DNA of 5,621 nucleotides from a virus (Duplodnaviria; Heunggongvirae; Uroviricota; Caudoviricetes). The stretch lies in IMG/VR virus record IMGVR_UViG_2667527849_000012; one strand, given 5' to 3'. This document shows, in pieces, positions 3,001 to 5,621 of this stretch; within the stretch, counting starts at the first letter, position 1; each line of letters opens with the position of its first letter. The position numbers are program-made.

Positions 3001-5621
3001 GGGATGCGGCGGCCTCAAAAGAGGCAGCGAAATCATCAGAAACGAACGCATCCTCGAGCGCCAGTAGCGCAGCTTCCTCGGCAACAGCGGCAGGAAATTC
3101 CGCGAAGGCGGCAAAAACGTCAGAGACGAACGCCAGGTCTTCTGAAACGGCAGCGGGACAGAGCGCCTCGGCTGCGGCAGGCTCAAAAACAGCGGCTGCG
3201 TCGTCTGCCAGTGCCGCGTCAACAAGTGCCGGGCAGGCCTCAGCCAGTGCCACCGCCGCCGGAAAATCGGCAGAAAGTGCTGCATCGTCCGCTTCAACAG
3301 CCACAACGAAGGCTGGCGAAGCCACTGAGCAGGCCACGGCAGCAGCGAGGTCAGCTTCCGCAGCGAAGACATCCGAAACGAACGCGAAAGCGTCGGAAAC
3401 CCGTGCAGAATCCTCAAAAACGGCTGCCGCATCGTCCGCCAGTTCGGCGGCGTCATCGGCATCATCGGCGTCTGCTTCAAAAGATGAGGCGACCAGACAG
3501 GCGTCAGCAGCGAAGGGCANCAAGTGCCGGGCAGGCCTCAGCCAGTGCCACCGCCGCCGGAAAATCGGCAGAAAGTGCTGCATCGTCCGCTTCAACAGCC
3601 ACAACGAAGGCTGGCGAAGCCGCTGTACAGGCCAGCGCAGCAGCGAGGTCTGCTTCCGCAGCGAAGACATCCGAGACGAACGCGAAAGCGTCGGAAACCA
3701 GCGCAGAATCCTCAAAAACGGCTGCCGCATCGTCCGCCAGTTCGGCGGCGTCATCGGCATCATCGGCGTCTGCTTCAAAAGATGAGGCGACCAGACAAGC
3801 GTCCGCAGCGAAGGGCAGCGCCACGACAGCATCCACGAAGGCGACAGAGGCAGCTGGCAGTGCGACGGCGGCAGCACAGAGCAAAAGTACGGCGGAATCC
3901 GCGGCAACGCGCGCCGAGACAGCGGCAAAACGGGCAGAGGATATTGCATCCGCCGTGGCGCTTGAGGATGCGAGCACGACGAAAAAGGGGATAGTACAGC
4001 TCAGTAGTGCGACTAACAGCACTTCCGAGTCACTGGCGGCAACACCAAAAGCCGTTAAGGCCGCGTATGACCTGGCTAACGGGAAATACACCGCACAGGA
4101 TGCAACGACAGCACAGAAAGGGATAATCCAGCTAAGCAGCGCGACCAACAGCACGTCTGAAACGCTGGCGGCAACGCCAAAGGCAGTAAAAGCAGCCAAT
4201 GACAATGCTGAGAAACGTCTGCAGAAAGATCAGAACGGTGCGGATATCCCTGGCAAAGACACCTTTACGAAAAATATTGGTGCCTGCCGTGCCTTCGGTG
4301 GGTCAGTAAGCACAACAACAGGAAACTGGACGACTGCACAGTTTATCGAGTGGCTGGATTCTCAGGGAGCATTTAACCATCCATACTGGATGTGCAAGGG
4401 TTCCTGGTCTTATGGCAATAATAAAATCATTACTGATACTGGCTGCGGTAATATTCATCTCGCCGGAGCTGTCATTGAAGTAATGGGGATAAAGTCAGCG
4501 ATGACGATCCGCATTACCACTCCGACCACATCCAGCGGTGGCGGAACAACCAACGCCCAGTTTACCTATATTAATCACGGAACAGATTATTCACCTGGCT
4601 GGCGAAGGGACTATAACTCCAGAAATAAGCCAACGGCATCAGAGATCGGGGCGCTACCGTCAGGTGGAACAGCAGTATCATCAGTTAATCTGGCTTCAAA
4701 AGGTCGGGTAGCCGCGCTGACAGACAATACGCAGGGGGCAGCAGGTCTTGAGTTATACGAGGTGTATAACAACGGATATCCAACAGCGTATGGAAATATC
4801 ATTCACCTGAAAGGGATGACAGCCGTTGGCGAAGGTGAGTTACTCATCGGCTGGAGTGGTACAAGCGGTGCTCATGCTCCGGCATTTATTCGTTCACGAC
4901 GGGATACGACCGACGCAAACTGGTCGCCGTGGGCGCAGCTTTACACCTCGGCTCATCCTCCTGCAGAGTTTTATCCAGTCGGTGCACCAATCCCGTGGCC
5001 ATCAGATACCGTTCCGTCTGGTTATGCCCTGATGCAGGGGCAGACTTTTGACAAATCTGCTTACCCGAAACTTGCAGCCGCTTATCCGTCAGGCGTGATC
5101 CCTGATATGCGTGGCTGGACGATTAAGGGCAAGCCCGCCAGTGGTCGGGCCGTATTATCTCAGGAACAGGACGGCATTAAATCGCACACCCACAGCGCCA
5201 GCGCATCCAGTACGGATTTGGGGACGAAAACCACATCGTCGTTTGATTACGGCACTAAATCCACGAATAACACCGGGGCGCATACGCACAGTCTGAGCGG
5301 CTCTACAAGTTCAGCTGGGGCCCACCAACATAGTCAGACTGGGCCCAGAACGAATAGCGGGAGTCAACCTACTGGAATGTTTCCGGCAGGGAGTACTCAA
5401 GTTAGCGGGACTAATCAGGTTGGTATCAGTGGCTCATTAACCAGTGGCACCTCCCAATGGGTAGGTAAATCATCTTCAGAAGGAAACCATACACACTCAC
5501 TGTCCGGCACAGCAGCATCTGCGGGTGCACACGCGCATACTGTCGGTATTGGTGCTCATACGCACTCTGTTGCGATTGGTTCACATGGACACACCATCAC
5601 CGTTAACGCTGCTGGTAACGC

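Follow-up and report, generated by a model that had tools for sequence, protein, structure and literature searches.

Is the shaft of the stf gene in this viral record lengthened by a true 99-aa tandem repeat, is the gene broken by a real frameshift, or has one segment simply been written twice? The window, by which we mean the whole 5,621-base record that was analysed, is made up of four contigs (A to D) split by N runs of 21, 21 and 1. Position 3520 is the only single N in the record, and on either side of it stand two closely similar segments, copy 1 (3223-3519) at the tail of contig C and copy 2 (3521-3817) at the head of contig D. We find that the apparent duplication, together with the frameshift that accompanies it, is an assembly artefact and not a genomic feature. 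With a probability of about 0.93, the 297-bp "duplication" arose because the overlapping ends of two contigs were left unmerged in a short draft scaffold, and only one copy is real.

The genes and contigs of the window read on the plus strand. Contig A (1-1149) carries the 3' end of lom (1-107; Ail/Lom outer-membrane protein), a GC-rich hairpin with a T-run at 131-160, read directly off the sequence, and the 5' end of stf. Downstream of the first 21-N join (1150-1170) the sequence begins again at the counterpart of position 111, and contig B (1171-2210) is a redundant second version of 111-1149. The second 21-N join (2211-2231) is followed by another restart at the equivalent of position 111, and contig C (2232-3519) gives the 5' region of stf a third time, with 248 nt more. 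Contig D (3521-5621) contains the remaining part of stf (shaft, Phage_fiber_2 repeats, collar domain and His-rich distal part) and breaks off with the record roughly 17 codons short of the stf stop. Besides lom and stf, no ORF was supported in the window.

The pair of segments around position 3520

Copy 1 and copy 2, both 297 nt long, are 96.3% identical, with differences at 11 sites. In the coordinates of copy 1 these sites are 3324, 3328, 3329, 3337, 3338, 3353, 3377, 3402, 3404, 3500 and 3506, and in the stf frame they produce four amino-acid differences (T/A, E/V, T/S and R/S). These are the counts that the initial annotation had given (~96% identity, 11 differences, four amino-acid changes). 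It had also described a period of 298 and a +1 shift of the stf frame when the N is counted as a base, and an in-frame junction when the N is deleted, and both descriptions hold. From the stf ATG at 2292, position 3223 falls on codon position 2 and position 3521 on codon position 3, which is a +1 shift across the N; with the N deleted, the junction GGC-ACA AGT reads ...AAKG-TSAGQ... in frame, with a period of 297 nt or 99 codons. As written, the junction base is an N and the period is 298, and the frame is kept only once the N has been edited out. One statement had to be amended: no single ORF was said to span the junction, but an ORF at 2286-3785 does cross the N at 3520, beyond which it is out of the stf frame until it stops at 3785. 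An independent repeat search returned the pair as 3220-3517 and 3518-3815 with a spacing of 298. The match in fact reaches two bases further to the left, CA at 3220-3221 being equal to CA at 3518-3519, and the N then stands opposite A3222.

Similarity arising by chance, or from the low complexity of an Ala/Ser-rich and repetitive shaft, is an explanation to which we give no credence. The composition of the shaft is biased and degenerate repeats occur inside it, but its other Ala/Ser-rich parts share just 38-55% amino-acid identity with the 99-aa unit, against 96.3% over 297 nt for the pair, and both copies fall on one orthologous interval, as described below. The similarity of the 297-bp segments therefore exceeds by far both chance and the intrinsic repetitiveness of the shaft. 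A template/variable repeat pair of a diversity-generating retroelement (DGR) was considered too, and rejected: the differences are not adenine-specific (of the 11, copy 1 has A at five and copy 2 has A at three, and the others are C, G or T changes), and the window contains no reverse transcriptase.

A genuine in-frame tandem duplication of 99 aa in the Stf shaft, produced for example by unequal exchange between co-resident prophage alleles and interrupted by a spurious N, would agree with the period of exactly 297 nt and the in-frame AAKG-TSAGQ junction that appear when the N is removed, as well as with a shaft composed of old, degenerate duplications. Two alleles of one coding segment laid end to end are likewise always mutually in frame. 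It speaks against this duplication, which we regard as very unlikely for the reasons given here and in the following sections, that the uncalled base lies exactly at the supposed junction.

If, on the other hand, the N stood for a true but uncalled base within a real repeat with a period of 298 bp, stf would be a frameshifted pseudogene. Counting the N, the match does extend to 3220-3222 and 3518-3520 at that period, and some finished genomes, that of strain H1 for example, have stfR annotated as a frameshifted pseudogene. Contig D, however, stays open in the stf frame for 2,101 nt, and every argument raised against a real duplication weighs equally against this reading, so that we hold it to be extremely unlikely. 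Programmed or real frameshifting was rejected as well, since the supposed additional base is a placeholder without a base call, situated where two redundant segments meet.

Redundancy at the three joins and mapping to one interval

The N at 3520 is one of three joins in the record, and at each of them the prefix of the right-hand piece repeats the suffix of the left-hand piece. This dovetail measures 1,039 nt at 98.65% identity for the join at 1150-1170, 1,040 nt at 98.46% for the join at 2211-2231, and 297 nt at 96.3% for the join at 3520, and every one of these overlaps stops at the last base before its N run. Contigs A (from position 111), B and C begin at one common base, CCAGGTAACAC, and hence about 1,040 nt are present in three versions. 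Between A and B there are 14 differences, confined to 619-854, and between B and C there are 16, confined to 3009-3212. Read literally, the window would contain three serial copies of a terminator and a truncated gene start, which is not credible as biology. Serial redundancy of this kind is the mark left by overlapping contigs that have been placed one after another. The two 21-N joins display, at a larger scale, the same type of redundancy as position 3520, a connection that the initial annotation did not draw. For a genuine duplication at 3520 this context is unfavourable, because the two other joins of the same record, within 5.6 kb, are equally redundant and plainly artefactual.

Three stf loci served as references for mapping the contigs, those of E. 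coli H8 (L001) and H1 and that of phage 204576. In reference coordinates, contig A covers 2383-3471, contig B 2433-3472 and contig C 2433-3720, while contig D runs from 3424. Contigs C and D share exactly 297 reference bases in all three loci. When positions 3000-4000 of the window (1,001 nt) were used as a query, they aligned as two pieces on 702-703 bases of the matching record, which is the span of a single copy; this applied to the best 30 of the 3,953 E. coli records that matched, as well as to all phage records that covered the query fully. What comes after the single copy in all five annotated reference loci (L001-L005) is GCGCCACGAC, not a second copy. Identity to stf genes of finished prophages amounts to 97-99% at the nucleotide level. 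More than one stf copy close enough to match this region is present in many E. coli genomes, the total being 5,862 places in 3,822 genomes, with up to 7 places per genome.

The initial annotation had offered, as an alternative to the tandem repeat, that the two segments are overlapping versions of one region present once in the real gene, and it had taken the N for a non-biological join in either case. The first proposal is borne out by the placement of contigs C and D on the same 297 reference bases and by the finding, set out below, that the copies are two natural alleles. The second agrees with every test that we applied, and the other two joins of the record are redundant in the same manner.

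Two alleles of one segment and the search for a tandem junction

The differences between copy 1 and copy 2 are differences between alleles found in nature. Copy 2 has no mismatch in 297 positions to the one copy that E. coli H8 carries (L001, 3424-3720), and H8 also has the left flank of copy 1 and the right flank of copy 2 as they stand in the window, both identical. Copy 1 shows the state of the IMG/VR contig L082 (IMGVR_UViG_2698536366_000004), of SE11 and of AR436 at 11 of the 11 discriminating sites. Extending the comparison to all sites at which contigs A, B, C and D disagree (41 in total), we could resolve them into two haplotypes in three blocks: haplotype H equals H8 at 41/41 sites, and haplotype X equals L082 at 41/41 sites. 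In block 1 (reference 2941-3176), A has the X state whereas B and C have H; in block 2 (reference 3210-3413), A and B have X and C has H; and in block 3 (reference 3525-3707), C has X and D has H. Contig D is absent from the first two blocks, and contigs A and B from the third. The path made of contig C (2232-3222) and contig D, which follows H throughout, differs from H8 by 4 mismatches up to position 3971. H/X differences are clustered, from about 2941 to 3818 in reference coordinates. The sample contained at least two stf alleles.

This allelic pattern bears directly on the notion of a genuine duplication. The left flank, copy 2 and the right flank already give the H8 allele when put together, and a duplication would need an X-type copy to have been inserted exactly where an H-type flank meets an H-type copy. 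A more specific form of the idea is that a hetero-allelic, in-frame duplication of 99 aa in the shaft resulted from unequal exchange of co-resident stf alleles, with the N as a base-calling blemish; should it be true, the fibre would be about 10% longer. We consider it highly improbable.

The positions at which the contigs end are also informative. Contig ends fall 7-11 nt from the next site that discriminates between H and X: A and B end at reference 3471/3472, the next site being 3479; C ends at 3720, the next site being 3731; and D starts at 3424, the preceding discriminating site being 3413. This is what would be expected if extension had halted where the reads disagreed. The 76-mer that spans the switch from H to X in contig C has no exact counterpart in IMG/VR or in complete E. 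coli genomes, its best match in the latter having 2 mismatches. For the switch in contig B an exact match was likewise not found in complete E. coli genomes, the best one having 1 mismatch. Contigs B and C would therefore be either chimeric assembly paths or unsampled natural mosaics, and the verdict on the duplication would be unaffected by the choice.

We then have the question of whether a tandem junction of the form ...GCGAAGGGCA-(0 or 1 base)-CAAGTGCCGGG... occurs anywhere else. Our probe for the junction was a 50-mer with the N deleted and 25 nt on each side, in which any 28-nt megablast seed necessarily crosses the junction. It had no match in 5,426 complete E. coli genomes, while a control 50-mer from the ordinary left boundary was found at 4,906 places in 3,450 of the same genomes. 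The junction pattern with an optional base, whichever base that may be, had 0 matches in IMG/VR, in JGI metagenome contigs and in GTDB species representatives, whereas the ordinary right boundary was present in at least 120 loci of IMG/VR. The absence from all these collections of a junction whose ordinary boundaries are abundant counts against a genuine duplication, and the absence of the pattern with any base at the N counts equally against a frameshifted repeat.

Loci and proteins gave the same answer. Among the fetched loci that have the unit, 115 of 115 have it in one placement, 42 of them being nearer to copy 1 and 73 nearer to copy 2. A protein search in which the hypothetical tandem region served as query produced 1,065 matches at E <= 1e-30; in the best 120 of them neither the junction peptide nor two high-identity units were found, and query coverage was at most 63% in each. 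Of the best protein matches nearly all carry the flag "partial", as Stf proteins from draft assemblies overwhelmingly do. Comparison with Stf homologues had been suggested initially as a means of finding out whether a 99-aa repeat exists, and the outcome, two units in 0/115 loci and in 0 of the best 120 proteins, together with a junction absent from the collections searched, leads us to set aside the tandem repeat that had been left as an option.

From these observations (redundant contig ends, one reference interval, two allelic copies and a junction absent from the collections searched) we infer the behaviour of the software and the origin of the two alleles as follows. The sample would have held at least two close alleles of a lambda-type stf, one H8-like (H) and the other L082-like (X), whose source is most likely either a pair of lambdoid prophages sharing one E. 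coli genome or a mixture of strains. Unable to collapse or to phase the alleles, the assembler may have produced four contigs that end near discriminating sites, which the scaffolder would then have set in series, unmerged, writing 21 Ns, 21 Ns and 1 N between them. A gap estimate of zero or below, with ends that differ by 1-4%, could lead to a minimal N gap and to the retention of both ends. Contig C would thus close, and contig D open, on one and the same segment, in its X version in C and in its H version in D, so that the segment appears doubled in a linear reading, and the placeholder N would add one base and break the frame. The literature gives general support for such behaviour, in that scaffolders are described which put a gap between contigs that overlap or set them end to end (PMC5368935, PMC4177539).

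The single-copy reconstruction and its comparison with known systems

Under the unmerged-overlap reading, the real stf is single-copy, and joining 2292-3222 straight to 3521-5621 yields an unremarkable Stf with a predicted length of about 1,027 aa, of which 1,010 aa are encoded before the record ends. Against the intact Stf of L082 (1,027 aa) this 1,010-aa product aligns without gaps and with 12 mismatches, all at residues 135-371, and against the Stf of H8 (1,024 aa) it has 1 mismatch within the first 480 aa. Pfam domains identified in it are PF08400 ("Prophage tail fibre N-terminal"; residues 1-134, E = 1.4e-71), PF03406 (Phage_fiber_2; two stretches, 5.9e-37) and PF07484 (Collar; 6.8e-12). 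The shaft arose by ancient internal duplications, which survive as degenerate copies with 38-55% identity, and a duplication in this part of the protein is possible in principle.

At the other end of the window, lom lacks 77 nt in comparison with finished prophages. The deletion sits between two CTGGCG direct repeats: window 1-66 aligns to 2240-2305 of L001, and window 61 onward aligns from 2383 onward, the lom of L001 being annotated at 1829-2428. L082 has the same deletion, whose junction had no match in complete E. coli genomes. Contig A is 99.57% identical to L082 across all of its 1,149 nt; L082 is its closest relative and belongs to the same phage lineage.

The main value of this analysis is one of caution, because the frameshifted pseudogene, the 99-aa repeat and the three serial gene starts suggested by the record are all non-existent. 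Gene callers will split or truncate stf here and repeat finders will call a tandem duplication, and comparisons of tail-fibre length or of pseudogenisation would be misled by the record as written. In lambdoid prophages stf is a mosaic gene present in several copies, and contigs tend to break in it; for such a gene, joins by a single N or a short run of Ns with near-identical flanks should be treated as unmerged overlaps. The biological residue is modest, consisting of at least two stf alleles in the sample and a single-copy Stf of about 1,027 aa that can be reconstructed.

How does the reconstructed locus compare with known systems? In lambda-type Stf proteins (the StfR/StfQ-like proteins of E. 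coli prophages), the domains and the gene order J-lom-stf-tfa are those of the reconstruction. The relatives L001, L002, L004 and L005 are annotated with gpJ, Ail/Lom, tail fibre and tail fibre assembly genes in this order; the window contains the 3' end of lom and stf, and the position of tfa lies beyond its end. The annotation attached to relatives of this type is "prophage tail fiber N-terminal domain-containing protein". Once one 297-bp copy is removed, no difference from lambda-type Stf is left, the predicted length being about 1,027 aa as compared with 1,024-1,027 aa. The tandem version, by contrast, would reach 1,109 aa to the window end and has no counterpart among lambda-type Stf proteins.

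The joins themselves can be compared with those of other draft scaffolds. A single N in L082, at position 10455, also separates dovetailing sequences (8053-10454 and 10456-12857; 2,402 nt at 98.8%). That join lies in the J/lom region and not in stf, and the stf of L082 is contiguous and intact, with one unit. At other single Ns in related loci (L076, L094, L101 and position 7274 of L082) no dovetail redundancy was found, so that a single N is not always a join; the N at 3520, however, falls exactly on one. Negative-gap joins and haplotig redundancy in draft scaffolds are characterised by an N at the boundary, a suffix-prefix match, a few per cent of mismatches and the mapping of both ends to one interval of finished genomes, as is the case here. 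Compared with the usual unmerged joins, the present record is unusually dense, with three serial versions and a fourth overlap within 5.6 kb.

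Serial versions of stf

Three serial versions of a ~1,040-nt region, each carrying a hairpin terminator and the 5' end of the side-tail-fibre gene stf, occupy positions 111-1149, 1171-2210 and 2232-3271 and are set apart by runs of 21 N. When scored against the E. coli H8-like stf allele (H) and the allele of the IMG/VR contig IMGVR_UViG_2698536366_000004 (L082; X), the versions in contigs A, B and C show the patterns X/X, H/X and H/H, respectively. In complete E. coli genomes, neither the haplotype switch point of contig B nor that of contig C is matched exactly; these contigs are therefore either chimeric assembly paths or natural mosaics that have not been sampled. 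Up to position 3971, contig D matches E. coli H8 at every base. Past that point (3972-5621) it departs from H8 (93.5% identity overall, with gaps) and tracks L082, from which it differs at just 4 positions over the final ~1,550 nt. The distal, receptor-binding part of stf is therefore either common to both alleles in the sample or mosaic.

Two long antisense ORFs, of 386 aa (2789-3949, minus strand) and 233 aa (3504-4205, minus strand), span the Ala/Ser-rich shaft. Both seem to be side effects of composition, arising from the GCN-rich codons and the artificial duplication.

A deletion in lom

Comparison with the prophage locus of E. coli H8 (L001) revealed that the 3' end of the upstream outer-membrane protein gene lom (window 1-107) lacks 77 nt (L001 2306-2382), which are flanked by two CTGGCG direct repeats and whose loss shifts the lom frame. 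The junction, near 61-66, found no match among the 5,426 complete E. coli genomes searched. Given that the same deletion is present in L082, an independent contig, it may be a real, lineage-specific event rather than another mis-join.

An unmerged join in L082 and breaks in draft assemblies

The related contig L082 also contains an N join. On either side of a single N at 10455, in the J/lom region, 2,402 nt are present twice (8053-10454 and 10456-12857, 98.8% identical), and this join is of the same artefact class as those in the window, overlapping contig ends having been left unmerged and set end to end. A second N, at 7274, sits at the end of 5582-7273, a segment sharing 91% identity with 11414-13105. 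Further, a diverged second stf-like start (MAVKISGVLKDGAGKPVVNC...) at L082 7830-7506 on the minus strand, whose ORF stops after 108 aa, ~230 nt short of the N at 7274, suggests that this assembly too contains a second tail-fibre allele. Finally, nearly all of the 120 best Stf matches in the protein collection carry the flag 'partial' and derive from short contigs, showing that draft assemblies are routinely broken at stf.
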